A DNA stretch of 64,000 nucleotides from Girardia tigrina (Eukaryota). Position 1 is the first letter of the stretch, and each line of letters begins with the position of its first letter. Shown here piece by piece: positions 1-63,805 of this stretch. Both the position numbers and the translations under genes were made by a program. The notes under the pieces were generated by a model. That model was not told the origin of the DNA. It saw only the letters and a list, made by a program, of their open reading frames with translations, and did not search any database. The stretch lies in the NCBI GenBank assembly GCA_001938485.1, contig MQRK01167228.1, positions 1-64,000 of the forward strand. Direction: 5' to 3'.

Positions 1-844
1 GGGACCGAATGCCCATTTTCCCCCTACTCATAGCTCTTAACTGAAGTCCTTTTGAAGTACCGTGTATAACATATATATAAAATGTATAAAACATATATTA
101 AGTAATAATTGAAGTATTTATTTGTTATTATATCTATTTCAGTGATCGTGTCTTTGAAAAAATTTTAAGGTGTCCATTACATCAAAAAGATAAAGAACCA
201 CAGCTCGAAACCCTTAAGAATATGGTATTTTAATGATTTGTTTGAGTTATTCAATATGTTTTTCCTTTAATCCTTTCTTAACCTGTGTTTATGCACATAA
301 TTTGTACAATATGACATTCATTTATACTCCATTTGTTTTTGAGTACACCTTTGATACTTTGATTATCGATCGAGAGAAGAAAACAATTGAAAAACTTAAT
401 AATAGATCAATATTAAAAAATGTTGTGGTGCTTGTGTAAAAAAGAAAAAATTGAATAAAAAAATTAACAATAAAAACAATTAACATTTGCTTTAAAAAAC
501 TGTTGGTAACAATATTGTTAAGAGAACTCACATTTGAAACTACATTTATTGCAATCACAATTTGGATCATTTTTTATGACTATTCGTAATAACTCCTCTC
601 AAATTTATATATCAATGTTTAATACTTCTCATCCAAAATCTGAACTAACTTAAAGAGAATTATTTTATTTAAAATATTTACTTTAAATTTTATTGGTTAA
701 AATAAAATTACTTTTTATAATTTTATAAAAACATTAATTTGATTTAATTATTAAAAAAAATTACAATAAAAATAAATTAAAGATTTGAATATTAAATCTA
801 AATTTGAATAAATTAGTTTCAGATTATAAGAATTAAAATATTAT

Positions 845-960
845 TCATCCATCTGATTAGGAGAGACACAAACCCAAATTAACACAAAACATTGAAACAT
901 GCAAACAATACACAAAACATCAACATTCCAAATTTTCTTCACAAACACAAATTCGAATTT
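845..960 (-). other. Conserved GU-rich hairpin motif, copy A (others at ~29690-29780, 50742-50830, 62710-62812)
   Basis: Minus-strand consensus TGTGA[AG]GA...T[GT]GAAT - TG-rich 45-65 nt - TCTCC[TC]A..CAG..TGGA[TA]GA, seen in three dispersed copies plus one partial copy. Confidence 0.7.
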
Positions 961-6748: not shown

Positions 6749-7558
6749 CTACTCATTCTTCTTGTCTCCTTCAATCGATTCAGATCTCTTGACGACTCCC
6801 GAGTTCGTTTCCGTCAGTAACTCATTTAACTCGAACGACTGAACGATATTTTCCCAATTGAAAGTGTACTTCTGCACGACTTTGCCCGCCAAATTGATTC
6901 CCGGTCGTCGAGTCACTTCTCTGCCGTTGCGGAACAAAATAATCGTCGGTAAATTCGTCGACCAATTTGTCGTATCGATTCGATATTTCAACGCGGCCTC
7001 TGTGTTCTTACTCACATCGATTTTGCCGAATTTCAACAACTCATTCCCGTAATACTGGGACAACTCGGCGAAAATCGGTGCCAGATTGATGCAAGCCGGC
7101 GACCAAGCGTTGTAGAAAGCGACCAGCCAGATGACTCGAGTGTCTCGAATCAGCTCTTCTTTCAGGCTCACATCGTTGAAGTAAATGACGCGGTCCTCGC
7201 CCCGATAGACCGGGGGAGAGATCAGAGACACTTGGAGCACCCACAACAATCCGTAGGCGATCGCGTAGAGAATGTTTTGCTGAAAGAACATGAAGAGACT
7301 GGCCAATTTACCGAACATGCAAAAGTGAGACACGTAATTGACGATAGTCGAATATCGTTTGCTTCTCAACGTGACCATTGAGCAGAGAAAGATGAGAATT
7401 TGGTATTCGTTAAAATCGATATGGCAAGACGAGTACATGACGGAACAGACGGGTTCGATTGTTTTCGAGAGGAAATAGAGCGATATGAGAAAATAATTGG
7501 CGATGAAGAACGGGTGATAGAGTTTTTTTAGTTCTCGTTTGAAATGTGAACTCACCAT
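6749..7558 (-). CDS. TMX2: Thioredoxin-related transmembrane protein 2 (TMX2/TXNDC14), intronless, 269 aa
   Basis: Intact ORF with hydrophobic N-terminal segments, then a thioredoxin fold with the TMX2-type SxxC site (WSPAC), FAELS..Y, LKFGKIDV, LPTIILFRNGREVTRRP and a C-terminal di-lysine ER-retrieval-like end (DKKNE). Confidence 0.93.
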   Translation of the reverse strand: MVSSHFKRELKKLYHPFFIANYFLISLYFLSKTIEPVCSVMYSSCHIDFNEYQILIFLCSMVTLRSKRYSTIVNYVSHFCMFGKLASLFMFFQQNILYAIAYGLLWVLQVSLISPPVYRGEDRVIYFNDVSLKEELIRDTRVIWLVAFYNAWSPACINLAPIFAELSQYYGNELLKFGKIDVSKNTEAALKYRIDTTNWSTNLPTIILFRNGREVTRRPGINLAGKVVQKYTFNWENIVQSFELNELLTETNSGVVKRSESIEGDKKNE

Positions 7559-8478
7559 TTTTATTACTATTATTACTTTTACTGTTATTAAATATTGGCG
7601 TTACGATAAATTTTTTGTGATCACAAAAGACAAATTCGAATAATGAAAAAAAATATTTAAGACAAATTTGTTACTTTGAACTTTGATATTTAAAACAAAA
7701 TGATTTCATTAAATTTAATGAAATATTTTTCTATTGATTCATGAATTTGAATTTCGATAAATTGTATATTGAATTTGATTATTGTTTTTTTTCTTAATTG
7801 TAATGGAAATAATGTATTCAATTTTTTGTAGTTTTTTTTAAAATATTTAGTTTAATATTTTCGAAAACTTATTTATGAAAAAAATTTATTATTTGAAAAA
7901 GTTAATTTTGTATTTTTTCAATGTGAAGAAAATTTTTCTTAAATAATTCTTTTATTTGATTTAATATATGTTGTAAAGAACTCGTTTTTTCATTTTTTAA
8001 AATCTAACTGTAAGAAACTGGAATGTCTGAATTACGGTGATTGCATTAGTTAAATTCTCAAATTATTTTTTGGAAATTAAAATTTTCAAAATTAAATTTT
8101 ATGACACGACATAATTTCATTACAAGCGGTTCTTTTTAATTGGAAAATTAAATTATTTTTTAACAAAATACAGAGGCACATAGGAATACGGTATATTTCT
8201 TATAAAAGTAATTTCCAGGTTAAATATTTTTTTATGATTATACATCCGTTAATTGGGATTCTAAAATAAATTAAAAATTTGCTCTCTTTTTCACATTAAG
8301 TGTCAGATTAACTTTTTCAATGCATTATAGATGAAATTAAAGTAAATATATATTTTTTAAATAACATAGTGTAAAAATTAATTATGTAGACTCCTGAAGT
8401 TTGATATTTATTACAAATTTAATATAATAAGCAAGTAGAATTTCATGATTATTGTTTATTCGAATTTTTAACCGTTAA

Positions 8479-9334: not shown

Positions 9335-10736
9335 AACCTTGTAATTGAAGAATTTTTACCATTGAAGAATTCATTATTCATGTCCAAGTCCATTTAAACA
9401 CTGATATCTTTGTTTTAAAATATTACCATTAAATGACATATATTTAATTTTCGATAATTTAATCTTTATCATGCAATCCCAAAAACATAAAACACAAAAA
9501 ATAACTTCCAATTTTTCTTAAGCATATTTTTGCAATTTAAACTTCATTTATTTGAAATATCTATGATAAAATTTGAATCACAACAAACGTTAATATAAAA
9601 ACAACCATATTTCATAGTGCCAAATATGTTGTACGTCACAACTCAGAGCTTAGACTACTTTCAGATTTTCAACTGTTTTGTTTCATGCAAAATTGTTTCT
9701 TCAGTCAATTACTTATACGATTTTTTTTACTGACAAAAACCTAAAGGAAAGACAATTATCATATGCATCAACCGATGAGTTTTGAAGCAAGTTTCGCAAG
9801 TAACCAAGTTCGTAAAAGTGAAAACGCTCACACTTTCTTAGCTAGTATTTGTCTATTTATGTAGAGAACAGGGGCAATTGAAATAAGAAAATTTGATTGA
9901 AGACATCTATGATTTTAATGATTCAGACAGCAACTCAGAAGTTCAATTTGGGAAGCAAGAAAACAATGGACCCCAACCCACGATAGCTATCTCGTCCGTC
10001 GGGTTGCATCAATAACGGAAATAAATTTCTGAGATAGAAAAAATACAGAGTAGAATAAGAAGATGTATCAGAAGAGAGATGGTAGATTATGGAGCAGGTT
10101 TGTATGCAATGGGACAGATTTCGAGAAGTTGTGGGATTCAGGAGCCTCCGTTTCAGTAATGAATGTATCATGTTGGAAGGAAATGGGTGGTCCACTGTTG
10201 AAGCCGTCAAGTGAGAAATTGATGGGTGCTTTTTCGTCGGGCAGTGGAGCAGTTGGAAGTCATTTTAAGAAACTTGGATTCGTCAGTAAACTCGATATGT
10301 GGTTACCACATGAACTGAAAGAAATTCTATACAAACAGAACACAATATAAGTATATGTTGTAAAGGGCTTATACCAGTCTTTATCTGGATGTAGACATCA
10401 TGAAGATGTTCGGAGTATATCTTAAAGAAGTGTTCGTGATGGAAACACAAGAAGCAGCTGTACAGATAAATACTCAGTTGAGAGTGGACAAAGCACTTAA
10501 TATTTTTGCTTCAAAGAATATCCATAACCTTATTCAACAATATGGAGATATATTCATGGCTTCTACTTTCGCTTTGGGATACACAACGGTTTTAAAACAT
10601 CACATTAAAACAACTGGTTCATCAGTGGTCATAAATCAGAGAATATTACCTCTACATTTGGAAACTGAAGTGAATATCTTGATAAAGCAGTTATTAGAAA
10701 ATCAAGTCGTAAAGCCGTGTTAAAGTCTATGGAACT

Positions 10737-13471
10737 TGGTCGCACTGCGATAGCCTTAAACCCTTTATTTGTAATTTAAATAAAAAAATTAATTAAACTA
10801 ATAAAAATAGAATTAAATAAGTAATTAAAATAAAAAAGAAAAAAAATAAATAAGATTTAATTGAATTAAATAATTAAAAAAATATAAGTATATACATAGA
10901 TATATAAATATGAATCATCACGTTCATATGGTTTTGTGATGATTGAAAATTAATTTGATTTTTTCCGTTTTAATTAAATTTAAACAATGATGTTCGGCTT
11001 CTGTGGGGTTCAGTTTCGATTTCAATTCAACGACAATCGTTATTTTATAATTACAAATCGGAGACCAATTCAACAAACAAATTGCATCGAAAATAAAATA
11101 TCGAATTAAAATGTGTCGGTCGCAATTAATTGATTTAAATAAAGACAATTGATTATTTTTTTGTGAATTAAATTCACATTTTGAAATGAATTTTGTTCAT
11201 TGTTTTTTTGAATTGACCAATTGGGTTCAATTTGATTTAAAGAATCCAATAGATTTTGTGTGACAGTTCAGAGAGTGTGTGTGTTGAGTGTAATCGGATT
11301 GAAAAACGATTTTTTTGTCACTAATGTTTACAATTGTCTAAATTTTTCAATATGGTTGAATTAAAGATTTTTCAATTATAAAAATAAATTTAATTTTGTA
11401 TCAACTTGGAATTGATTTAATTAACGCTTATTAGTATTTTGATTTCCAATAAGTTTTTAAATAAAAACGAATGAATATAAATCGATAATAATGTTTATAA
11501 AATCATCAATGAAAATGATTGATGTTGCCGAATCTGTGATTAATAAGAAATTCTGTGATGAATATCATTTGATATTTGTACCAGACTGTTTATCTTGTCG
11601 AAGTGAATACATAGATGGAAAAGGTCTCCAGTCAAAATTAAAAAATATCTCTAAATTTAAATGTTATGGAGTACCTTTATATAATGATCTTATATCTCTT
11701 GAGAATCCTTATTTCATATTGAATATAAATGATTTACCAACTTTGTATGAATTGACCAAAACAATTAATAGTGATGATGATTCAAATTTTGAATTAAATT
11801 TAAAAAATCAGGCTCAAAAGGTCATAGATTTCAGCAACAAAATCGATATGGGCGTGCAGATATTCATTTTGAATTTGAGTAGAGCCCATCAAGAAATCGA
11901 CCAAATCGAAAGAAACTCTACAACGGTAATCGCACATTTCTATATTAAAGACGGTCAGTTCGTCAAGAAAATCGATTCAAAATTAAGTAAATTTATTGTC
12001 GATTCAGATGATTCGTTCGTTGAATCGAGTTCCGATAAATCCGATCGGAAATTATCGAGAAATAACTCGAATGAAATCAAAGCGTCTTCATCTATCATTC
12101 CTGACAACCGAATCAAATCTCAATCAAATCAAATCGATAAACCGCGTCGAAGAACGATCAACGAATTTCTATTGGAAACGAGCACAATATGCAATTTGAA
12201 GTCGGTAATGGAACAATATTTGGCGACAAAATTGTGGAAGAGCTTTGGTTGAAATAATTTACATCTTGATCGAACTTAAGCAGAATTAATTAAAGAAACA
12301 TGTTTTTTTTAAAATAAATTAAATAAAGTAATTTATTAGAAATTTTAATTAAGTTAAAAATTTAAGTAAAATCTAAATTTAAATTTCTAGTGTAAATACT
12401 TCCAAGAAAACACAACTTTTTGGTATAAAGGAAATAAAAATGTAAATATAATTTATATATATGTATAAAGTTGGTAAATAATTTTGTACAAAGTTGGTAA
12501 ATCATTTATATTCAATATAAAATAAGGATTCTCAAGAGATATAAGATCATTATAATATATAATGTAAAAAGTTGTTTGTTTAAATAATAGCGGAATCACC
12601 GCACAATTTTTCAAAATAAAAAGTTTTGCGTTTCTGATTTTGTTGAATTTGAATGATTTGTGGTAAAACCGAATTAATGAACAAAGAATCTGTTAAATCG
12701 GATAATTTTGAATCGATCTCCAAAGAAGTTGATAAAGCGCGAATTATCAATAATAAATCTTATAATAAGAAACTATCAATCAATTTTATATCACAAAAAT
12801 ACTGGCAAAAGCATTTAAACTTTACTAATTCCATTGCAAATGATAGGGATGATAAGAAATTAATTAATAATTCTCTGGAATATTCCCGGATTTTCATGAA
12901 TTCATGTTCGTCATCATCAGTACAGAATTCCATTCGCAGAGAAACAAGAATTCGATCGCATGGCAAAGAAAGAGAACGAGAAAAAGTCCTCTTGAGGGCT
13001 AAAATTATTGATTGGATGCGCAGCGCGACACCAAGCTTGTTTCGAATTGTCGCTTTGATTCGCAGACGGAAAAATTATGCAATTGTGATATTCAGTGCCA
13101 AGAAACTCGCCAACTGTTCTCCACACTATATTCGTGTGATAGATGTGATTCCAGTTAATAATGAAACTAAAATCAGTGACGATCTAATTCGATCCAGTAG
13201 CGGCACGATACAACCAGCAGTCTTAACCGGTGAAGATTTTTCTCTTAATTAATTCGATCCGATTTCAAATCCAATTGATTCTCAACCTCCAATCAATCAA
13301 TCGAATATGAAAGAATATCATTTAAGCTTCAAGGAAAACGAAGTCTTTACAAGTTTTAATTGGCTGCAAAAATTAAGGGATGGAGCGGAATCATCGTCCG
13401 AACAGTCATTCGAACCAAAATTTATCAGAATCTGATTATGATTTACGAAAACCCTCTGCTGAGATACAACA
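10737..13471 (+). mobile_element. Unclassified 2735-bp TG...CA insertion with 5-bp TSD carrying host-gene fragments
   Basis: GAACT at 10732-10736 and 13472-13476. Removing the insert and one TSD copy restores the Gypsy frame KPC*SLWN|SQLVVVKKKD. Ends are TGGTCG... and ...TACAACA. Confidence 0.85.
11491..11765 (+). pseudogene. VPS33 (Sec1/Munc18 family)-like fragment at the start of chimeric ORF 11491-12252
   Basis: FIKSSMKMIDVAESV...YHLIFVP...GLQSKL...VPLYNDLISLE...DLPTLYELTKTI resembles VPS33 FVRP..MDIIAENV..FHILFVPR...LIPFDGDLLSME..DQTSLYHAAKGL as recalled. The rest of the ORF is unrelated, low-complexity sequence. Confidence 0.7.
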
Positions 13472-16376
13472 GAACTCTCAGCTGGTAGTAGTAAAGAAAA
13501 AGGATAATAATAATCGAATGTGCTTGGATTTCCGACCATTAAATGCGATTACAGAAAAATTTACATTTCCGGTACCAGATATCTGCGGCCTTTTGGATGC
13601 ACTGAGTGGAGCAGTTATGTTCTCTTCTATCGATTTAGATAATGCTTACTACCAAGTGGAGTTAACAGAGGAATCAAAATTGAAAACCGCTTTTAGTACC
13701 AAAATTGGACAATTTTGCTTCAATCGCTTACCTTTTGGATTGTGCACTGTTCCAGCAACTTTTCAAGTTTTAATGCATCAAATATTTCACGATATGCTGT
13801 ATAAAGGAGTGATTGTGTATTTGGATGATATTTTAGTTTACAGTTCCTCTGAGATGGGTCATGATGTTCTGCTCGAAGAAGTTTTTAGTCGTACTGCAAG
13901 TGCAGGTCTTAAAATCAATCGTCAGAAAGGCCGTTTGAAGGAGTTTGAAGTAAGATTTTTAGGACATGTAGTAAGTAGCAAAGGAATAGAAACATTTGAA
14001 GATAAAATCAAATCGATTAATGAAGCACCGGTTCCAAAATGTGCAACTCAATTGTGTTCTTTCTTGGGTCTTGCCAATTACTACCGGCGATTTATCAACA
14101 ATTTTGTTAAAATATCAAAGCCTTTATATGCGACCAGTGCCACTGAAGAGAAATTTTACTGGTCACTGGAGTGTGCAGACAGTTTTGATGAACTTAAAAA
14201 GTGTCTTTCTACAAGTCCGGTATTATGCTTCCCAAATATTAACCAAAAAATGGTGCTAGATACAGATGTCAGCTTCTCTGCTATTGTAGGTGTATTAAGT
14301 CAAATTCAAGAAGATGGATCAGAACGGGTGATAGCTTATGAATCAAGAACCCTGAGTGAGCACGAAAAGGGCTTCTATGTTACCAGAAATGAATTGCTAG
14401 CATTAAGAGATTACATGCTGCATTTCAAGCATTATTTATATGGAAAAAAGTTCTTGGCTCGTACCGATCATAAAGCACTTTTATTTATGTCCAAGACAAG
14501 CACACCACTCAGTTATCAAATTTCAGACATGAATTGAAGGTCTGACGGGTTTTCAATATGACTTGCAGTACAGGAAAGGATCAGAACATTCAAATGCAGA
14601 TGAGATCTCAAGATAGTCAGAAGCATTGTGCGCTCAATTTATGACGAAACATGTCGGAGCTAAAATAAGTAAGAGTGAAGTAAAGTATTTAAACACTTGT
14701 AGCACGATGGATCACCACCATATCAAAGACATCCAACGAGAAGATAAAAATATTCTGGAAATTATTACTTCATTAGAACTTAATGAAACACCTTCAATAG
14801 ATCAGTTACAAGGTCCCTTGTGGGAACACATTAATCACTTAATATTAGAAGATGAATTTCTGTTCTATCGGGATGGACATATAAAACGCGTGGTTGTCCC
14901 AGAAGCTGCTCAACATCGATTAATTCAGTACACTCATCAAGATTTATGTCACATAGGATATAAAAAGTTGTATGAATATATGCGGGATATCTATTTCTGG
15001 CCACAAATGCCACAGATAATTGAGAAAGTTTCTAGAGAATGTGTTATTTGTGCAAAACGGAAGGTACTAACAACACCATCTAAGGAGACATTTTTACCTC
15101 GAGATGATAAAACATTATTTGAAGAAGTTGTAATGGATATTGCACATTTTTACCTTCTAAAAGGGGAAAGAAATATGTACTTGTGATGGTTGAAAGATTT
15201 AGCAAGGTCGTTGCATTGGTACCACTTCGTAATTAAGATGAAAACACGTTGATTGCTGCTATTAAAAATAAATGAATTTATCGATTCGGGAAACCCAGAT
15301 CATTTTTATCAGACAGGGGAAAAACTTTGGAGGCAACAAGTTGCGGGATATGTGTAAAACCTTCAATATATCTCAAGAATTTTCGTCTCCGTACCAACAC
15401 CAATCCAATGGATTAGCAGAGCGCACGATTCGTTCATTGCGAGATATGGTAGTTACTTCTAGTGCATCTGAAAATGATTCTCCAGATTGGGAAGAACTAC
15501 TTCGAAAAATTGAATTTCTTTTGAATACAACTTGGCAAAGTTCTATCGGATGTACTCCATTTGATGTTTTATTTAGACAGAAGCTTAATTTACATGGCAC
15601 ATTCAATATATTACCCCATACACAATCAAATCCGATGACAGTTGAGCATATTTGTAACTCTGCCTATCGATTACAGATGCAAGATGATGAAAAACGAGGA
15701 CATCGGAATTTTCAGGTGGGAGAGGTAGTGTTAGTAAAGGTGGAACCTCACGAATTGAGGAAAGAAGGATTCAGATATGACGAGCCATATAAAATTGTAA
15801 AATTCCTCACTCCTCATCAAGTGGTTCTGAAGTATCCCAGAAAAGTATACAAGACCTTCAAATTAAAGAGGCGGAAGTAGGATAATTGAATGTTATTTTA
15901 TGTTTTTAGCATTTCATGATTGTCGACTTTCCTTAATTTAATTTTAAATTTATTTAATAAATTCATTCCTGAAATTATTTTAGGTGATAATTAATCGGCT
16001 ACATAAAATTTAATATTTTCCTTTTCACTATCAATTTGCATTAACTTTTCCGTAAATTTTTAATGAGCTATCATTGTTATAAAATATTTTATCATCTGAA
16101 ACATCTATTTTAATATTTATAATTTTATCAATTATACTTTTATCTTATACACTTATTCGGGCACTTGTATCAAGTAAGCAATTCATCAACATTTGATTTA
16201 ATTTAATTTTTAAACTGGGTCGGCTGTTTATTTCATTATATACAATTTTATGTTTAAATCCAAGATGTGAGATATTATTAATACTTTTAAATTCGTTTAG
16301 TAAATAAATTTTATTATCATTACTATACTTTAAAAAATTATATTTATTTTTACAATAATTAAAAAAAATTTTTAAA

Positions 16377-18564: not shown

Positions 18565-19749
18565 TTATGCTGGATGAACTTTGTTAGCGATTCTGTCCGT
18601 TCTTTGTGAATCATACAAATAACTCTGACCAATAATATCCGATTGTGAAGTTGAAGGTGGCGGCGGTGCGACAGACGGTACTATCTGTTGTGGTAATGGT
18701 GGTAAAAATTTGCGTTTTGTAACAGGAGCGTTGGAAAATCCAGAGGGTTGTTGGAGCAACGGTGGAACATTAGTATCACTGGCAGGTTTTGATGTGACTT
18801 CGCTGGAAAGATTTACACCTTGATTAGAAAGAGCCCAACGTGCATTGACAATGTGTCCCAACTCGTGCCACTCACTGATCATTTTTGCTGCTTTCGCAGC
18901 TGTTTCGCGACTCGTGAATTTGATTGACCAACAATCAATCAACCGAGCAACGGAACGAACTTCTCCAAACTGACTGAAATATTTCATCGTATCATTTTCC
19001 CCGTATTCATTCGGTAATCCCGACACTTCGATTGTCGTTATCGATAAATCCTCGGGAGGTTGAATCATCGATTTACGAATAGATTCGTATTTTTCGATGA
19101 TTCGGTTGGCGATATTATCATCAACTCCGTAGTATCGATCCCTAATGTGTTGTTCGTTAATCGGGTCGTATGGTTCTGATGGGGCTTCATGACGGAATGG
19201 ACACGATTCCCCCCGTTTACATTCTCCTTTCACGTAGAATGTGCAGATGCTCAGTTTGTTTCTTGAGTAGGGCTCGGTTTGAGCGAGTTTCGAGAGCATT
19301 CGAATTGTGTTGTTTGTCATCTTCCCGGGATTTTTGAAGTTTTGGTAAGGAGTAGAGATATCGCCACCCAGTTCCATTTCTCGCTCTATCACCTGCTGGT
19401 TGTATTCCAAATTCACCGGACCCTTCGGAATGTTCTGTCCGATATTGAGATACTGGTCTCTAACTTGCACCGGTAAACCAAAATCCAGATCCATAATACA
19501 CGATTGACAAACGTTTTTCGTCCGGCAACAAATTTGACAGATTTCTGTTTGACGTTGTTTTCCATTTTCATCTGCAATCCAACGGAAAACTGTGTAAGGT
19601 CGAGTACAAACTCCACATTCTTTTCCATAATGACTTTTAATCATTCTCATGAAAGGATTGCTGCCAAAACATGCTTCACAAACTATTGGGAAGTCAGATT
19701 CTTCCCAATTCAATTGATTATATCGACTTGTTCCTTTGCTAGTTGTCAT
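18565..19749 (-). CDS. RBM22: Pre-mRNA-splicing factor RBM22 (Cwc2/Slt11 family), intronless, 394 aa
   Basis: Intact ORF with N-terminal YNQLNWEESDFPIVCEACFGSNPFMRM, TEICQICCRTKNVCQSCIMDLDFGLPVQVRD, CCCH finger ICTFYVKGECKRGESCPFRHE, PPEDLSITT followed by an RRM, and a Pro-rich tail. Confidence 0.96.
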   Translation of the reverse strand: MTTSKGTSRYNQLNWEESDFPIVCEACFGSNPFMRMIKSHYGKECGVCTRPYTVFRWIADENGKQRQTEICQICCRTKNVCQSCIMDLDFGLPVQVRDQYLNIGQNIPKGPVNLEYNQQVIEREMELGGDISTPYQNFKNPGKMTNNTIRMLSKLAQTEPYSRNKLSICTFYVKGECKRGESCPFRHEAPSEPYDPINEQHIRDRYYGVDDNIANRIIEKYESIRKSMIQPPEDLSITTIEVSGLPNEYGENDTMKYFSQFGEVRSVARLIDCWSIKFTSRETAAKAAKMISEWHELGHIVNARWALSNQGVNLSSEVTSKPASDTNVPPLLQQPSGFSNAPVTKRKFLPPLPQQIVPSVAPPPPSTSQSDIIGQSYLYDSQRTDRIANKVHPA

Positions 19750-20439
19750 GATATAATAATTTTTGAAATAAATACAAAAACTAATATTATTAAAACTAAT
19801 TTAATTTAACATTTTCTTTTAATAAAATTCAAAAAAACAATGACACAATGCTTTTTTTAAATATAAACTGTCAATTCACCACTTTTTTAAATAACGATTT
19901 TTGTAATTTACCAACAACATTAAATTTAAATAAAAAATAATAATTTAATTTTTATTCAACGGAAATTATTCATAATTTTACGGAAAGTATCTTAGTTAGT
20001 AATGTTGAGTTTATCAGTACTAATGTAATGATTTGACAAATGTAAAAATCATAAAATTTAAGTAAATTAGTTTTGGTAAAACATCTGGTAAAAAAAGGAA
20101 TTGTTAATTAAATTTTAAAATTAAAATAGATTTCCTTTATGTCAAAGTTCGTATACAATAACAATAATTTTTTATAAGAAAAAGTGCAATTTAATAATTA
20201 AAATTTGATTTTAATTATTATTATACCCTAAAAGATTATTTCACTTGATTTCTATATTATTTAATATAAAATTCTTTTTATTATCAAATATAATTTTATC
20301 CGAGTTCATATTTCATTAGTCACGTTTGTATTATTTAAGTTCCATTTGTCTATTCTATTAGTTATTCATATTATTGATAGTGAAACTTAACCATTAAAAA
20401 TATATTAAGAAGCTCTTTTTACAGGGTTATTCACTCATA

Positions 20440-23180
20440 TAAACACCATTCAAATTATAAAAACTTCTATTCATTGATATAAACACCTTCATTCAAATTA
20501 TAACCCCTATTCAAATTATAAACACTTCTGTTCAAACTTTAATTCATTTTTATAAATAATATTATTCACTTTTATAAAAAAATTAAAATTCGTTATTTAT
20601 TATTTTAAAATATTTTATCAATGGAAATATATTGTCTTTCTTTTGAACATACAATACAATTTTGAGGATTTCTAAAATATTTCCCTTTTTGAGTATAATT
20701 ATGGTAAATTTATAAACTTATTGCAGATTTAGATGGAACTTGAGTTGATTGTATTTTATGGCATTCGTTGTGTTCCATTACTATTCAGTTTATAGTTAAA
20801 ATTTGTAAAATTAATGTATTATTGATTTTGTGATTTGATATCACTTAATCGGCACGGTTAAATTAAATTCAATTAAATTAAAAGAAGTTTATTTCTTTTG
20901 AATTAATAATAAATTAGAAAACTCTTTTAGGTTGTATATTATTTATTTTAGTAATTAAAAAATTGTAAATAATTAGAATGAATTTAAGTATAATTTACTT
21001 TAAAAATTTTCCTTATTTAGATAATCAAATTTAAAAATATTTTAAATTTTGATATTCTTCTGAAAATATTATCTTTAATTTTTTTTATGATTTTTAAATA
21101 ATTGAAAGTTTTTATTTACAATTTTTGTATTATAATATAGTATAATGTATCTTATAATATAAAAATATTAATATAAAATAAAATAAAATTGATTTTATTT
21201 TAATTTATTAAAAGTAATAAATAAATTTTAATAAATTTATAAACTTATAGCAGATTTAGATGGAACTTGAATCGATTGTATTTTATGGCATTCATTGTGT
21301 TCCATTACTATACATTTTAAAGATAAAATTTGTAAAATTAATGTATTATTGAATTTGTGATTTGATATCACCTAATCGGTGCGATTAAATTAAATTAAAT
21401 TAAATTAAAAGGAATTTATTTCTTTTAAATTAATAATAAATTAGAAAACTTTTTTAGTTTGGATACTATTTATTTTTATAATTAAAAATTTGTAAATAAT
21501 TAGAATGAATTAAAGTATAATTTATTTTAAAAATATTTTTTGTTATTTAGATAATCAAATTTTAAAATATTTTAAATTGTGATATTCTTCTGAAAATTTT
21601 ATCTTCAATTTTTCAATGATTTTTAAATAGTTGAAAGTTTTTATTCACAATTTTTATATTATATTTATTACATTTTTATAAGAAAAATATGTAAGTAAAT
21701 TAAAAAATCTAAAAGCAGATGTTACTCAAAAATCCTAATTTATTGATTATTTTAGGTATTAGATATAAATTTCATGTTATTAAAAATAAATAAATGATGA
21801 AATTAATTTTACATTTCATTTAAATATTTATTTAAAAGTAATAAACGAATAACAATATAAGAAATGAATTAAATAAAACATTCAGATGAAATAAAAATAA
21901 AACTTTCTATTACTCAAATATGACATTTGAAAAAAGGAGATACGTGTTTTATTCACACAGATTTTGATTACAGATGTAATTATAGAATAGTAATTAATTA
22001 TTACATAAAATTTTAAATAAAAACTTTAAATTATTGAGAAATCAAATAATTAAAGATATTCCAAGAATATCATTTCAATTTCAAATAATTTAATTTACAG
22101 ATCTGCAAATGTAAATGACTAATTTACTTATCATTAAAAATTTTCTACATAATAAAATACGAAAAAAATTTTCTAAATATAAATTATATTTTAATTAATT
22201 CTAATTATTTAAAAATTTTGAATTATAAAAATAAATAACATACAAACTATTTCAAAAATTTGTTTATTACTTTTAATAAAATAAAATAAAATCAATTTTA
22301 TTTTATTTTAATATTAATATTTTTATATTATAAGATACATTATACTATATTATTTAAAATATTTTAAATTGTGATATTCTTCTGAAAATATTATCTTTAA
22401 TTTTTTTATGATTTTTAAATAATTGAATGTTTTTATTTACAATTTTTGTATTATATTGTATTATTATAATACAAAAATTGTAAATAAAAACTTTCAATTA
22501 TTTAAAAATCATAAAAAAATTAAAGATAATATTTTCAGAAGAATATCACAATTTAAAATATTTTAAATTTGATTATCTAAATAACAAAAAATATTTTTAA
22601 AATAAATTATACTTTAATTCATTCTAATTATTTACAATTTTTTAATTATAAAAATAAATAATATACAACCTAAAAAGGTTTTCTAATTTATTATTAATTC
22701 AAAAGAAATAAACTTCTTTTAATTTAATTGAATTTAATTTAACCGTGCCGATTAAGTGATATCAAATCACAAAATCAATAATACATTAATTTTACAAATT
22801 TTAACTATAAACTGAATAGTAATGGAACACAACGAATGCCATAAAATACAATCAACTCAAGTTCCATCTAAATCTGCAAAAAGTTTATAAATTTACCATA
22901 ATTATACTCAAAAAGGGAAATATTTTAGAAATCCTCAAAATTGTATTGTATGTTCAAAAGAAAGACAATATATTTTCATTGATAAAATATTTTAAAATAA
23001 TAAATAACGAATTTTAATTTTTTTATAAAAGTGAATAATATTATTTATAAAAATTAATAAAAGTCTTTATACTTTAAATAGAAGTGTTTATAATTTTAAT
23101 AGGGGTGTTGATAATTTGAATGAAGGTGTTTATATCAATGAATATTAGTATTTATAATTTGAATAGAAGTGTTTATAATT
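20440..23180. repeat. Large AT-rich inverted repeat (foldback) with internal tandem duplication
   Basis: About 20545-21135 is a near-perfect reverse complement of about 22462-23055. About 20708-21135 is duplicated in tandem at about 21234-21665. An extra ~105-bp-arm hairpin is centred near 22460. Confidence 0.9.
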
Positions 23181-23399
23181 GAATTACGATTTAAAGCATA
23201 TTAAAAATTTTAAATGAAGTTATTTCCATTTTTTAAGTACATACCTGTAGCATAATAAAAAGGCTGAGAAAGTTAACTTTTATTTAATTTAAAATAGATG
23301 AAACGTAATATAAAATTCATGAATCATTATCATATAGAATATAAAAGATAAAATGCTCCACAATGACGAAAAATATAAAAAAATCACAGCAGTCTTCCC

Positions 23400-47200: not shown

Positions 47201-50200
47201 GTCACAGCTTGTTCTCCTCTAGCACTAAATTTGATATCAAAATTTATGAAATTTCTTGAAGATCAAATCGATAAATGAACTATATAAAGTTTAACTGGGA
47301 TGTGTTACCACGCAAATCATTTAGTTCTGATATGGCCCAATAAGATTTTCGCATGTTTTTTCCATGTAAATTTTTTTCATTTTGGGTAAAATTTTATTTT
47401 AGACAACCACGGTAAAACGTATTTGGAAAAATTTTTCGCTGAAAAAAGAAATATTCTACAAAAGAGAAATGATAAAGTGACCTGAAAAATGATAAACGAT
47501 TATAAAAAAAATGGTCGATATATTAATTACTGGAGTGCCTTTTGAATTCCTTAATATTATGATAAAACCGAAACAACTTTTGAGCAATTAAGCAGATTCT
47601 TTACGTGAAAGAATATTACGTACAATCTATTTAAAAGACAAGTTTATTAAACTATGCGTTAACTTAATTAGATGGTAAGAAACTCTAAATTTTTTAAATC
47701 TTGTAAACAATCAAAAATAAAAATTGTTTAATTCCAATAAACATTAAAAATTAAAGCTAAAATCATTTAATAAATATTGATAAATCAACTTTGTTAAATA
47801 TATCATTAAAAGTAATCGAGATTGATTAAAACAAACTTAATTATCACTGTTAGGGGGTTTTTGGGGACTTAAATTTTTGAATAATTAATTTGAAATATCA
47901 TAATTAAATAAGTTCAAATAATTTATTTATATAAATTTTTAAAAAATAAATATTTCGGATTAATAAGAAAAATTGTAATTAAATTTTAATTTATTAGACA
48001 AGAATATTTGGAAATAAATAATTCGGAGTAACAAACATTGTAAAATAAAATTAAGTTGTAAAATAAAACAATTAATTGTAACTCAAAATTTGTATTCAAA
48101 AAATAATTATAATCAAATGTTTTTAAAAATTGAGTTGTAAAATAAAAATTCATGTTTTATTTAAGTTAAATCTCCAAGTTTCACTTCAGAATTCATAATA
48201 ACAACAAGTAGAATTTATTTAATATTTACAATCTTTTTAGAATACTTAAACAAATTAATTATCACAACTGTCCCCTCTTTTATAATTCGTTATTTACTTT
48301 CTTAATCCACTCGATTCTTCGACGATTTATGTTTCCATCTTTCAGATTCTGTAGTTCCAATTGATGTGGCGATATATGTCTTAAAATTTGGTGAAATTAT
48401 TGTGAAGAAATTATTGATTTGTGTGAAGAATTAATGTATGATAATTCTGACTGTGAATGAAGTACTTGAACAATGATGCAATGTAAGAACTTAAGTTTTC
48501 TGCCAAAATGTACCATTTCTTTTTAAAGATGAATGATGCATTCAGAAAGATAGAGTCGCAATAGGTTCCAAATTAGCACCAATGTTAGTGTAAAAGAGCT
48601 AACTGAAAACGTGTTTCAATGAACTCCTTTAACGTAAAAAAATAAAGATAAATATGTATAAAACTTTTATTTTTACAGAATATAAATAAACATATATAAC
48701 AAAAAAAATCACATACGAGAGAGAGAACGGCACAGATAAATTTCGATTTCGATTTGTGTTTGTTGTTCAAAGGTTTCTTCTATTGTAACAATATCGATGG
48801 AAACGTAAGAGAATCATTCGGTTGCACAACGAGAATTTTGAGAAAATAGATCACATAAAGAGGAGCACTTTCAAGGGGAATATTGATCAATTGGTTTGCA
48901 GAAAACTCCTTTACGAACCGCTTTTACAAGAAAACGCCCCGCAGGCAATATAGTATAATTGTAAACAGTAATATTAATGATTGTTTTTATCGATTGTTTT
49001 TTTATATATAATTTATATATAATAATTGACTGGGTCACTACAGTTAGCATATTTTTTTTAAGTATTTTGAGGATAAAATCAACACATAACCTCGGGAAAA
49101 ATCTGTACTGTACAAGAGATATGTAGATGATATTTTTATTGTTTTCAGAAACCAATTCCGGATAAAACCATTTTTATCATTCTTGAAATGCCTTCATCTT
49201 AATATTAAATTCATAACGGAATCATAAGTAAATAACAAGCTTCTTTTTCTTGACATTCTTGTCACTAGGACGAATGGGAAATATCGAACTGAATTGTACA
49301 GAAAGACAACAGATACAGGTCTACAAAACTCCTCAGAGCTTTTGTGAAGAAAAATATAGAGAGTATGATAAATGGCTTAGTTCACAGTGTTTGGTATTTG
49401 TCTTCGAATTTCGAAATAACAGATCATGGTTTAAATATTCTTAGAGGCCACATGAGGGATAACACGTGCACAAGCTAATGCATTCAGTACCATTTACTAA
49501 GTTTCTTTTGAAATAATGTCATTTCTAACTTCATTAAATTCACATACTAATCAATTAATTTTACATAAAAATCAAATAAAAATATTGATGGAAATAATTT
49601 CTGATAAAACACAAAATGAGTTAATGAAGCTGATATTTAAAGAAAATGTGAATGAAGTTTGTAATAAAACAGTACAAAAATTCGACTTCATAATAGTAAA
49701 ACTACAAAAATTAAATAATAATAATGATTAATAATGATAATAATTAATAACGAATGAGTATTATAAAAGTCGGGTGTAGTTCCGTGCGGGCCCCAGCAAC
49801 AATAAAAGTATGACGATATGTCAAAGATTATCAGCGTTCCAGGAAAAATAATTTAAAAATTAAAAAAAATTATTTAAAATGTTTTTAAAGTCACAAATGT
49901 TAATGGGAAATATGAGTGTTGATTACATAATCACTGGCTTCACTGACTTTTTTTGGTACCGTAGCCTTTGGGCCGTGGGTGCACTCGATTATTCACAAGC
50001 ATATGGCTTGGGTTTGCATATTTTTGAGTGTCTCAGTAGGCGAGGAACCTGGTGGCGCCTATCTCCTCTCCAGGTATGGATGGCCGTTGGCTCCAAGGAG
50101 CTCATCCGCCCTTTGCTAGGTTTTGTTTTTCATCCTGCTAGGTGATCACACACCTCTTCACCCAGGTTGCTCTGGGTGAGACAGCCGGTTTAGTCGCCAA

Positions 50201-53200
50201 CTATTCGACCATGGGACAGGTATTACAGGCTTACATGGTACCTGCAGCAGACAGCTTGCCTGACCTGACCTGTCTTACTCTAGATTTACTGACTTACTCT
50301 AGAAATTATTCGACTTAATTTAGGAAATATTTGTACCGCGATTTCAGAATGAAATAAATGTTTAATAATTTGTTTCATATGTTTAGGTTTAATATATTTA
50401 CTTATTATTAAGATCATTAATTGGGTTTCCTTTACATTTATTTGCATCACAATTTGAATTGCCGCTAGAACAATTCTCCGTAAAACTTGCGTAGCTCGTC
50501 ATCGTTCTTGATTGATAATCTTTAATAATATTCTTTAACGTCTCATTATTCAAACAAATTTAAATTACAATTTAAATATTACAAAAATAATTTATACTTT
50601 AAATTTGAAATAAATTTTATTTATTTTAAGAAAATATTATTAAAATATTATTTATGAAGTATTAGTTTAATTTTAAAGTGATTATTTAAATTTTAATAAT
50701 TGATTAAACAACCCGACGTTTTAAAATATTTAAAATATCAATCTTCCATCCTGGTGGGAGAAACACAATACTAAAACAACACACAATAAACACCATTCAA
50801 AAATACTCCTCACATATATAAAGTTTAATTTAAAAATATACATAAAATAAGTCGGAGAAGTCGGTGATTATGTAATCAATATATGTATTTTTCATTCAGG
50901 TTAGATTACTTTAAAAAAATTTGAAATAAATTTTTTAAAATTTTCAAATTATTTTTCCTGGAATGCCGATAATTTTGTATATATTGTCCTTCTTTTATAT
51001 TTGCTGGGGCCCGTACGGAACTTTACCCGAAAATTCATTTGAAGTTAAAATAAAGATTGAAAATATTGAAAACATTTTTAATAAATAAGATTACATCTGA
51101 CGAGAGCGAATCTGGGGACGATTGAAATTCCGAAGATGGATTTGAAAAAATTATATTTAAAGCATTATTCAAACTGTTGTTCGACAATTTTAAAGCGTCG
51201 GAAGCTTTTTCTCTGGAAATTCCCATTTCTAGAAGTGTATGAATCAAATTTTGATCGGCGTTGACCAATATCTGTTCACTCTGATTGGAGATTTCCTCTG
51301 GAATAACATTTCAGTCGTTGAGACTCGATTTACAAAACGGTAACTAATGATTACTTTGCACGTATTGGAACAAATCTGATGCCGTTTTATTCAAACAGAG
51401 AATGTTTTGTGAAACCTCAATGAGTGTAACCAAAACCGATCTCAGAATTCGATCAGTGTTTATTTTGGACTTTTCATTAATCGTTCTGAGATTTATTCCT
51501 TCCAAATTTTTTGTTGCTTCTTCGATATCTCTGTCGGTGATTTTAGTGTCACTAATCTGATAAAAATTTATTGTTCCAAGAAAATCTCTAAAGGACAATT
51601 TATTGTTACTTGTTGAATCTCCGTATTTGAAGGACGATTTGGAATGGAGAGAATGATTTCATCTATAATATGGAACTGATTGAGAGATCGAGATTTGGTA
51701 TATTATATTGTAAAATTATTATTATTAAACAACGAATTTAATATTTTTCATATATTTGTACGATATTTAAATTATTGTTTTGCTAATTTTTATGTTATAT
51801 TTTAGCATTAAACTGTAATTATTTCAAATTTATATATCAATAAATTTAAAATGTCAAAGGCTCTTATCAATTTCGATTTTTCAAGTCTACAAAATTAAAA
51901 AATTTGTACTTTTAAAACAGTTACCAAAATTATTTTTTGATATAATAGCAGTTTAAAAGAGCGATGAAAAGTTCAAATGTCCCATTCGTGACTGTATAAA
52001 GTCTACAAACACAGCCAGAATCATCGAGAATCATGGAACATAAAGTCATGACTAATCTTTTCTAACAAGAAAACAGAAAAGATCTCGAAGAATGAAGCAA
52101 TCCGACCCCGTAGGGGGGCTATCGATGGCTGCTAGACACTATTTAGTTTGACAATTAAAAATTAAGTTTTAAACAATTAAAATTTTACAAGTAAAATTTT
52201 TCAAGCACTACCCTATATATAAAATGTGAATACGTAATCAACTTATTTATTAGCTAATTAAATACTTTCAACATTCGTTCAAATTCACTATCGTATTGCC
52301 ATCCTTCGTCGTCTACTTCTTCATTTTGAAGCAAAGTAGGACATATCAAAATTCTCAATTAACATCATAGATGCTCACAGTATGTGTAATGATGCCTGAT
52401 TGAAGGTTATACCCGAAACAATCTAAGGTTGTTTTCGTCATGCTGGCCTTATGAAAAAGAACTCTATTAAATCAACTATTCAAATAAATGAAAATAGCGA
52501 GAAAGAATATCTCAATGTCTTTTCCTGCATTCAATCTAACTTTAGTGAAAAATATAGCATTTCTATCCAAATTACTCCAGGAAATTATTTGGCTATCGAT
52601 GATGAAACTACAGTCGAAGAAATTTTAGGAGATGAAGCAATTCGCGATAAGTGTTCCCTTAGACAATAACGAAAATGAAGCAGAACAATTACCATATCAT
52701 CCTGTTTTACTTACAGATGCTCTGCGTAGTATTTCAATATTGCGATCATTCTTCATTGAAAAGGGGTTATCAACAACCAGTTTGGATGTTATTGAGCAAG
52801 AGATAATTGGATAAATAATGAGCAACCAAAGACAAACGTTGATAAATGATTTCATACACAAAGAAAGAGGGCAACTGTTAAATTGATTTATTTTAATATA
52901 CAAAATGTATCAGAATTTTTGGGATCCTATCTTATGCAATTAATAAAGGTCATATACGAAATAAAGAACTTTGTTAATTGTAATTCTACTTGAATTTTTA
53001 GCTTTCTGGTCACATTTAGTATTCCGAGTCAAAAGATTTATTACCGTATATCACCGCGTATAATGCGAAAAAATTATACCACTTTTGTCCTCATGAAAAC
53101 ATAGTCACATTATACGTGAGTAATAAATTCAAAGTAAGTTATCTAAATCAACTATTATTAATGAGTAATGATTACTACGTGTCGGGCCCATCTGAGTGAC

Positions 53201-60065: not shown

Positions 60066-63000
60066 TAGTTCTATAATTTTACTTTCAATTACTGTTATCA
60101 TTACCCTCGATTAGATTAGTACTTATTTAGACCATCTCTATTTGTGTCATAAAAATAGATTTAACGAATAACTTAACTAAATTGGATCTCTTATTTTCTT
60201 ATTTTATTTCTCTAAATTCTTTCGATTGGTAATTATTTCAACCTTAACTAAATAGCGAATTGAATTAGAAAATGACAATCAACGAATAAATAAAAAGTTT
60301 TAATTATTATTAAAATGATAATCCACGAAGATATAAAAAGTTTTAAGCATTAGTAAAATACAAAAATTAGTTATCCCAAGATTAGAATTATCAAAATTTT
60401 CTCGTTTGTTTTACCGGATCAATTCTAATCTCAACGTCGTGTTGATAAACCGAATTTCAATAACATCTATTCCTCATTTTTCGATCAAACGGATTTGTAC
60501 ATCGGTGTCGTTAGATCGTTCGATATGAACAGATTCGCGGTCCTATTCCGCCGAGAACCGATTGAAAGAACCGAGGCCCTCATTGAAAGATTCCATCGAT
60601 ATCGTCATTATATTGATGATGATTGGGCTCGTGTGGACCCCTTCTCTCTCTAGCGATTCGATCGCGGGTAAATTATTTTGGGGCATGTAAAAATATGAAG
60701 GACGGCGGCGGCGACGGCTGGGAATTACTGTTCGACTATGGTTCTAATAGACGTGGAACTGTGTCCTTATTGGCCCCCAATAGAATCACTTTCAAGCAAG
60801 TTAATATTCATAATTAAACGCAACTAATAGTAAAAAAAATTCAATGATAAAATCACTTTATTATGGGTATAAAACAACAATCGGCTAAAACTTATTAATT
60901 CAATTAATAATTAGCAAAAATAGAAGGTGATCAAATACATAGAATTAAAGCTAAAGATTTACAGCAGTGATGTGGTTCTCCGGTGGCTTGTTACTCAACT
61001 CGATTTGCGGTGAGATTTCCGTTTCGCTCGTCGGCGCGTCATTCGATTGAAGCGCTATTGGTAAACTCGTCCTAAGGTTCGGGTTTCTCTATCTCGGTGT
61101 CTTGCACTCGTTGCTCGATAGGTAACGAATCATCGTAGGTCTCGATTTATTGAAATCACTCGTATCCGTTTGTTGTCTCTTCGTGCATTTTCTCGTTCGG
61201 TTTTTCTTTGTGTGTTTTTTGTCGTGAAGTCGTCTCAAAGATGTAACGGCAGTAATGGCAATATTAATAATCGATTGTTCGAAATTCAAACTGTCTCTCT
61301 GTTCAAAAATGACTCTTCTCTTATACTAGGGTGATGCAACCCTGTCGATTCTTCTTGGCCAATCATCTGGTGCCAACCGATTGTCTAGAGTTTTCTATGA
61401 TGCAGATTAGTCAATCCGGGTAAGTGTGTCTCTAAAAGATTTTTCAAAATTTAAAACTTTTTATTTTACTATAGGAATTGGTGTCAGTGTGTCGCTGCAT
61501 GCTCTAAAATTCTTAGAGTTCATGTGCGGGTGAGTCAAATGGAGGCGTCAGCTGGTGTCTATTATTGGACTTATTGCTGACTCATGGTAACTTTTTAGTT
61601 AAGCTTTGTTCTTATTTATTAATTTGTATATCTTTACAGGGTTATATATTCTCAGGGGAGTACATCAGAATCTTGCGGGTTTCATTCAGGAATTGGCCTC
61701 ACAAGGGGCTATGTGGGGAGGGTAACTTTATTAATTTCGGGCTCATTTTTAATTAATTTTTTCTTTTTTAGGGTCTATAACTTCTTTTCGGAAAATATTA
61801 CGATCTCGCGGGTTTCGAAATTGGATCACCCGTGCGACGGCCTTTCGGAAGAGGGTCAGTTGTTTTCTTTCGACCACTGGGTGAGCCTTGATATAACTTT
61901 TTATTCTTTCTTATTTATACGGTTATTTTAGTCTCCAAACATCTCAATGCCGTTCGTTGGAATCACAAGGGACTTTACAGGTGTCGTGCCGCAACATATG
62001 TATTTGTCATGTGTTAAATATATGTATTACATCTACTTGTCCTTTTTCTTTTCTTTGTCATTTTGCAATTTCTTTAATGCTTATCGTTTATAAGGGATTT
62101 GTATTTGAATTCTCGACCGCAACTACTCAATATTGGACCGTAACAATAGTTTATCTAACTGTGTCTTAGAAGATTAGACGCATGTTACAATGTTGCCAAT
62201 GTGAGGAATATTTTCGAATCATATAGGTCATATTCTGCATTTGGTATGTAATTTTAGAGAGGTGCAGCTGCAACCAGATGGCAGCTTTATATTCTAAATT
62301 TTTCAAAAAATATTCGCATACAATTTCAAAATTTTAAAATTAAATTTATTAGGAATAATTTAATATTAAAAAATCTGTCAATTAAAATTAATGGACATAT
62401 TAACAACATCAATATGAGTTTTACAACATTTATTAATATCACAAGCGCATTCTCTATTTGACATTTTTCTTGATCGATATATTTCTGAGTTCATACTAAT
62501 TATTTTCAATAAATGAAAATCTGTTAATAAAAATTATTAATTATAAAGAATCTAATTGGTTAAAATTAAATCTAAACATTTTTTTAAAAAAGAACATATT
62601 AAATTAATCTATTAAAATTTTAAATCACATTCAAAAATTATTTTAAATCTTTTTTACTTTAAAATTAAATTAAATTATTTTTAATTAGTAGGAATCAAAG
62701 AAAATACCAATCATCCAACTGTGTAGGAGATGTACATTCCGAATCAACATACAACATGCACAATATCAACACACAATTCAAAACATTCCTCACAGGACAT
62801 AAACTAAATTTTTTAAAAAAATTGAGTAAGCGTAAGTGTTATATAATAATAAAAATTTCCATAAAAATAATCATAATTTGATAAAATATTGATTCTGGAG
62901 CAAAAAACAATCACAGAGCGAATGAATATTTGCCATAAATAATATACAGACTTTGGTCATTTGTTACTGATACAATTTGAAGATTTTCGATCTCTTAAAC

Positions 63001-63805
63001 GATCTACTTCTCACACGCGATCGAATTTTATCGGTATTTCAGAACTTTTACGATAACTATTAACAAGTGGTTCATTTGACGTAAATCGCGAACTATTAAC
63101 GTAATTGGAGTTTTTTCCATCGAGCATGGTTTGACCGTCTACAACTTTACTAAGATCATATATATGATGAAATGATCACGGATTACATGGTGATGCACGA
63201 ATTCTGAGATATATGAACTGGATATTCGGACGAAATTTTGTTTGTACAAAATTTAACCGATGTTGATTATTGAGAATTAATTTATTGTTTCGAATGGCCA
63301 TCAGGGACGCGAATCCCCATGCGAGACACGAGGTACGTTATGTTTTGACAAAATAATAATTTGTACAATAATTTATTATTAAAAAACTTTTTTGTAAATT
63401 ATAAAATCAAATTAATATTATAAAATGATAATTAGTAATTTTAATTTTAAGTAATATCATTTATAGTAAATATTTGTAAAAGAAAATGTATGTTCAAATT
63501 AGTTCAGATTCTGGGATTAAAAGTATGAAACTTTAATCGATGAATATGAGTGAGAGCACTAATACTGATTGTCATAAAGATGATATAAATTGTAATCGTA
63601 ATACATGTGAGTTCTCTTAATAGTCCTTTCGTAAAACTCTATTCTTTACTTTTTGTATAAAACTAATTTTTTTGAAAAAGAAAGATTATATTGATTACCA
63701 GCACTATGTTCCTAAACATTTAATTTTTATACTCTTTTGATAAATCTTTGCTCTTTACTACCTTTCTAAAAACCTATTTTTTTCGAAAAATAAAAAATAT
63801 CACAT

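Follow-up and report, generated by a model that had tools for sequence, protein, structure and literature searches.

A dispersed two-box motif of Girardia tigrina is almost certainly the 5' end of the LTRs of a high-copy Ty3/Gypsy retrotransposon family

In animals, the long terminal repeats (LTRs) of Ty3/Gypsy retrotransposons have been described with inverted TG...CA ends reaching ~7 bp inward, an AT-rich stretch, a variable U3 and an AATAAA near the 3' end; in the available part of the same account, the LTRs of Sushi and rGmr1 combine a T-rich U3 with an AATAAA near the 3' end, and the ~7 bp conserved at LTR ends are regarded as integrase sites (PMC3601003). Solo LTRs of the lennie/ta-TRIM elements start transcripts, according to the excerpts at hand (PMC4558846), and tissue-specific Gypsy activation has been reported in planarians, no motif being named in the accessible portion of that work (PMC8532177). 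In a stretch of 64,000 nucleotides from one contig of Girardia tigrina (hereafter the window), a motif with two conserved boxes recurs three times. Almost certainly, it forms the 5' end of the LTR in a Ty3/Gypsy retrotransposon family present in many copies, and the three examples are solo LTRs. As far as the available description goes, ends of the TG...CA type, a 3' AATAAA, an AT-rich stretch and a variable U3 are common to animal Ty3/Gypsy LTRs and to the present family (PMC3601003). The present 5' end, however, reads TGTGAGG and not TGTTRNR, two subfamilies end in ATA, and the same excerpt notes no counterpart either to the second box or to a gag start located inside the LTR (PMC3601003).

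The motif had been proposed to be a ~110-nt unit with one conserved box at its 5' end (box 1) and another at its 3' end (box 2). Three minus-strand copies with both boxes were indeed recovered, box 2 of the second copy requiring two mismatches to the search pattern, and a scan of the window for box 2 returned only the sites of these three copies. The proposed length proved wrong: genome searches with each copy and its flanks delimit a repeat unit of 397–428 bp whose first bases are the TGTGA of box 1; in each interval originally reported, 16–18 nt are unrelated flank. Among the best matches in the genome, homology breaks off at the same two ends for all three copies, and both boxes of each copy fall within the first 73–99 nt of its LTR. 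The ends are sharp, with a TG start in all subfamilies, an ACA end in the group of copy 1 and an ATA end in the groups of copies 2 and 3, the latter departing from the canonical CA. The window copies belong to three different subfamilies, each copy being 83–96% identical to its own best matches, and identity between subfamilies is ~67–80% over the alignable parts. The sharing of the boxes is far beyond chance, as originally claimed: in the 1.43-Gb assembly, box 2 alone has 14,261 exact matches and the two boxes separated by 40–70 nt have 18,100, against 0 for the reversed-pattern control in both cases. The two-box matches listed are dominated by a subfamily with near-identical heads, often found at contig ends and without a member in the window; this pattern suggests a recent burst.

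Copy 1 (516..943, minus strand, 428 bp, TGT...ACA), delimited by the ends of genome homology, carries box 1 at 933..943 (minus strand), which forms the LTR 5' end and the putative integrase att end, and box 2 at 845..864 (minus strand), a conserved U3 motif with a CAGATG core and a candidate promoter or enhancer site; its peptide in the gag frame is broken, with 19 codons open. Copy 2 (50406..50814, minus strand, 409 bp, TGT...ATA), from another subfamily, has its box 2 at 50742..50761 (minus strand) with an altered CANNTG core, and encodes a frame of 32 codons starting at an ATG (50407..50502, minus strand), which shares the reading frame of gag in the linked copies and overlaps an AATAAA at 50437–50442. 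Copy 3 (62398..62794, minus strand, 397 bp, TGT...ATA) represents a third subfamily, with box 2 at 62711..62730 (minus strand, CAGTTG core) and a Cys-rich frame of 32 codons, also starting at an ATG (62399..62494, minus strand) and overlapping an AATAAA at 62429–62434. It is flanked by a perfect 5-bp target-site duplication (TSD), TGTCC, at 62795..62799 (5' copy) and 62393..62397 (3' copy) on the minus strand. In copies 1 and 2 the 5-bp flanks agree at 3/5 positions each, and their TSDs are not individually demonstrated. A fourth, headless fragment of the family, overlooked in the original prediction, lies at 63357..63608 on the plus strand and covers LTR positions ~161–407 at 77% identity.

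The assignment to LTRs rests on the anatomy of loci gathered genome-wide. Within a set of 46 of 60 loci (7 duplicates, 5 loci with a primer site after the end and 2 without clean ends having been dropped), 26 carry a perfect TSD of 5 bp and 36 are within one mismatch, while a perfect TSD of 4 or 6 bp occurs in none of the 46; among 2070 mismatched flank pairs used as control, 0.8% were perfect and 5.6% within one mismatch. A polypurine tract immediately precedes 3' LTRs, and a primer-binding site immediately follows 5' LTRs: the tract followed by box 1 gives 2,199 genome matches (control 0), and the LTR end followed by TGG gives 790. TGG directly follows the LTR end in 21 of the 30 loci fetched, 15 of these 21 running on into the same gag start. 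The genome carries tRNA-Arg genes whose 3' end is complementary to this primer site, the match running, over 18 distinct junctions, for 3, 6, 6, 7 (seven junctions), 9, 10 (four junctions), 11, 16 and 17 nt; 7–10 nt is typical, and at several sites the complementarity is as short as 3–7 nt. At three loci (L071, L091 and L097), the LTR end is followed by 15–17 of 18 nt matching tRNA-Arg, i.e., longer than the usual site of the family, the sequence continuing into gag in L097 and into unrelated DNA in L071 and L091. Elsewhere, four tRNA-Arg genes lie within 1.2 kb (L150:116-1274), one read with anticodon GCG, and at L114:1438-1573 a whole tRNA-Arg(ACG), including its 3' CCA, is joined to the CACA end of another repeat; this joint seems to have arisen when a primer was reverse-transcribed and became part of the genome, at a repeat end which is not that of the LTR studied here.

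Between the LTRs, the internal frames match Pfam families for protease, RT, RNase H, integrase and the CCHC zinc knuckle. The only case with two LTRs among the 13 stretches fetched, L109, has LTRs that are 96% identical, a common 5-bp TSD outside both, and RNase H and integrase between them. The Gypsy order (PR-RT-RH-IN) was pieced together from broken copies, namely L105 (gag-RT-IN), L104 (PR-RT), L109 (RH-IN) and L108 (gag-PR, then RH-like and IN-like frames); an intact full-length element was not seen, all linked copies inspected being deleted or frameshifted. Those Pol homologues that bear a transposon name, among 120 listed and mostly unnamed, are all of the Gypsy type (17.6, 297, 412, Ty3-G, Tf2). 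The motif is hence a segment of a transposon, as its TSDs and its linkage to gag-pol show. The original prediction had considered a cis-element of a mobile module, which was right as to kind, the motif being the U3 end of an LTR, and mistaken as to the module, which is an ordinary Gypsy-type LTR retrotransposon.

Box 1 corresponds to the first bases of the LTR, and bases 3–5 form a TGA which serves as the stop of pol (integrase) in 3' LTRs, the integrase frame passing through the polypurine tract to reach it. At least 300 nt of upstream sequence were at hand for 21 loci, and in 19 of them no open frame is longer than that closed by this TGA; it reads as an integrase C-terminus, of which the final codons were forced by the search pattern and the upstream residues were not. 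Box 1 may be kept because integrase would bind there and because the pol stop lies within it. Box 2 is located 62–86 nt into the LTR and is present in 22 of 26 LTR heads for which the polypurine tract was the sole basis of selection (4 of the 30 heads being too short). Of 92 aligned heads, 80 have its CANNTG core, which we take to be an E-box. The position within U3 makes box 2 a likely promoter element, at which a transcription factor would bind the DNA. Between the boxes, the TG-rich middle consists of short degenerate units, and its length varies because such units are gained and lost between subfamilies; the first 40 nt of the LTR contain 1% C and 30% G.

Alternatively, box 2 might belong to an LTR head and yet act in the RNA of the element, in strand transfer, packaging or 3' end formation, in the manner of Ty1 CYC3. 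The U3 of the 3' LTR is contained in the full-length element RNA, so that box 2 would lie in the genomic transcript, and its conservation across subfamilies is compatible with such a role. In Ty1, 5'–3' pairing of this kind is documented in the part of the report available (PMC5454406). In seven of seven elements, however, box 2 paired with the 5'-terminal 500 nt of the element carrying it no better than shuffled boxes did (24–86% of the shuffles doing equally well), nor was covariation found. We consider an RNA-level function of box 2 improbable, and a promoter site remains our preferred reading of this box.

Beyond box 2, the GC content of the LTR drops to 7–12% for ~160 nt and then climbs, and the last 96 nt form an open frame, often Cys-rich, which is continuous with gag. 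An AT-rich spacer and a coding-like stretch had been noticed behind each copy and taken as separate from the motif; both are real and lie inside the same repeat on the minus strand. At least 25 codons are open in the gag frame in 66 of 77 full LTRs, as compared with 27 LTRs in the second frame and 7.5% of shuffles, the third frame being closed by the end motif used to pick these 77 LTRs. An ATG lies exactly 32 codons from the LTR end in 50 of the 77 LTRs, and occurs in all six clusters with at least three members (12/22, 16/19, 13/15, 5/10, 1/4 and 2/3), while an AATAAA at -37, within the codons, is found in 59 of 77; the 77 LTRs are related by descent and these counts of frame, ATG and AATAAA are not independent. 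The gag-linked frame is retained in window copies 2 and 3, and in L105 it extends out of the LTR, across the primer site and into gag. A second ATG, which straddles the junction between LTR and primer site, is an alternative candidate for the gag start. A literature search found no gag start inside a Gypsy LTR, a weak negative given that wording varies.

Put together, these features allow the life cycle of the family to be sketched. Transcription would begin in the 5' LTR, downstream of box 2 and upstream of the LTR-internal ATG, and would end with the AATAAA at -37 of the 3' LTR; tRNA-Arg would prime reverse transcription, and integrase would insert the element with a target duplication of 5 bp. 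Recombination between both LTRs of an inserted element then likely leaves the solo LTRs. A bolder proposal, which we hold to be rather unlikely, is that the LTR constitutes an unusually complete mini-gene: a conserved promoter site resembling an E-box, an ATG of its own and 32 codons, often rich in Cys, with a poly(A) signal embedded in them, so that solo LTRs could express short Cys-rich peptides or start fusions with the host DNA beside them. If true, the family having 18,000 or more copies, its solo LTRs would spread a single transcription-factor site throughout the genome, and the 32 codons would form the N-terminus of Gag.

The conserved boxes around a free middle had also been taken to suggest an independent structured ncRNA gene, the boxes pairing or binding a protein around a G-U-rich hairpin, a possibility which is now very improbable. 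The motif was said to fold on one strand only, and across the heads of the LTRs the raw energy does favour the sense strand (-14.4 vs -6.8 kcal/mol for 92 heads); shuffled sequences, however, show an equal gap (-14.8 vs -6.0 kcal/mol), and the asymmetry is compositional. The mean folding z is +0.15, one of the 92 heads falling under -2, and window copies 1, 2 and 3 reach +0.33, +0.93 and -0.52 when folded from the LTR start and -0.10, +0.49 and -0.98 over the intervals originally reported. These 92 heads were retained from 116 distinct ones after removal by hand of 24 that were mis-anchored or near-duplicate; they were chosen on the boxes, and neutrally decaying solo copies among them dilute any structural signal. 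Columns of the boxes are more conserved than those of the middle (0.93–0.96 vs 0.80), a difference biased by this selection. A stem of seven pairs between box 1 and box 2 can be formed in 82% of cells, while sliding it by two columns pairs 83.7%, and the same hand-drawn stem has one two-sided change, equalled by 274 of 500 shuffles. RNAalifold returned 0 pairs on the 92 heads, and a hairpin inside box 2 did not exceed shuffles either (113/500), so that covariation is not beyond controls. Two of the outcomes that the original prediction had named as refuting it, a lack of covariation above controls and a match to part of a transposon, were observed. Rfam gave 0 matches at the gathering score in the 64-kb window, and of the 3 weak matches obtained with E up to 1 at the three LTR loci, none is on an LTR. 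Moreover, the inherited unit is the whole LTR with its TSDs.

Expression data were available as contigs, which cannot show strand, start or level: among 16 assemblies, none contained half of the query words. Two metatranscriptome assemblies compared with L105 contain members of the family, with a summed depth in the motif bin of 37.9 and 8.9 against ~75–435 over most of pol in both, and in two assemblies whose type is uncertain the greatest depth on L105 falls in the motif bin, contig depth being in all these cases unable to rank the parts of the element. Among the contig joints listed on L105, none is an intron-like joint in the AT-rich spacer. The motif as a whole illustrates a trap for sequence-only reading, as folding is always better for a G/T-rich strand than for the complementary one, and the heads of LTRs mimic two boxes with a free middle.

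Hardly any credence can be given to a SINE, a MITE or the head of a module capturing gene fragments instead of an LTR, for although the repeat is short, very numerous and mostly stand-alone, its fixed 5-bp TSD, its primer site and polypurine tract, the paired copies around gag-pol, the anatomy of L109 and L105, the unrelated flanks of the window copies and the 24 of 25 scanned frames without Pfam match all speak against it. The copies had been pictured as heads of fragment-carrying modules; as solo LTRs, they sit in flanks that share no similarity among the three. The scanned frames comprised 23 of 38 flank frames and two LTR peptides, and the sole Pfam match was a UBA-domain frame at 51038–51310 on the minus strand (UBA_7, E 1.7e-8), amid short broken frames, 220 nt upstream of copy 2 and beyond an inverted-repeat arm. 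Copy 2 itself lies between 120-nt inverted arms that are 80% complementary (window 49770–51030), and this inverted-arm element is probably a DNA-transposon derivative.

Other features of the window were recorded along with the LTRs. A separate decayed Gypsy element at 10364–15880, with RT, RNase H and integrase, has no adjoining LTR of the present family, and a 68-nt inverted pair within it (11680–12554) brackets most of an unrelated frame of 263 codons. A very AT-rich, large foldback lies at 20392–23216; its arms measure 482 nt at 97%, and it contains repeats of 527 nt. The TMX2-like gene (6749–7600) and the RBM22-like gene (18565–19800) are each a single uninterrupted frame, and Pfam supports the frames of both genes, in agreement with the original gene calls.

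As found, the result matters little beyond annotating one abundant Gypsy family and removing a false ncRNA candidate. A modest interest remains in the overlap of coding sequence and cis-signals at either LTR end, and in a box kept across subfamilies at more than 14,000 sites. Should a host factor bind box 2, this family would supply regulatory sites, already formed, in large numbers.

A search of the literature on planarian, Gypsy and LTR elements found no description of the present LTR family, which may already stand catalogued in Repbase, Dfam or GyDB. Its Gag has two zinc knuckles, which, we presume, recall those of Mag. In the part of the Culex survey available, a 5-bp TSD is given for nearly all listed elements of the Mag lineage, one of which has a tRNA-Arg primer site as here, whereas Mag LTRs measure 119–304 bp and mostly use tRNA-Leu or tRNA-Ser primers, unlike the present family (PMC3286476). 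Conversely, the elements of the Mdg1/412 lineage listed there share with the present family a tRNA-Arg primer site and a similar LTR length (431–444 bp), but have TSDs of 4 bp, a length at which none of our 46 loci is perfect (PMC3286476). Judged by these partial descriptions, the clade hints thus conflict, the TSD length fitting Mag and the primer and LTR length fitting Mdg1. Outside the Gypsy group, the available part of the work on Ty1 places the GAG start after a 5' UTR of 53 nt, ahead of a coding 10-nt primer site (nt 95–104), which is reminiscent of the arrangement seen here; Ty1 is, however, of the Copia type and primed by tRNA-iMet, and the present box 2 has no pairing like that of CYC5:CYC3 (PMC5454406). 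Finally, lennie/ta-TRIM of taeniid cestodes differs in its tRNA-Leu primer, as against tRNA-Arg here, and yet, likened by description only and as far as the available excerpts go, it resembles the present family in its 8-nt primer sites, its many solo LTRs and its TSDs of 4–5 bp (PMC4558846).
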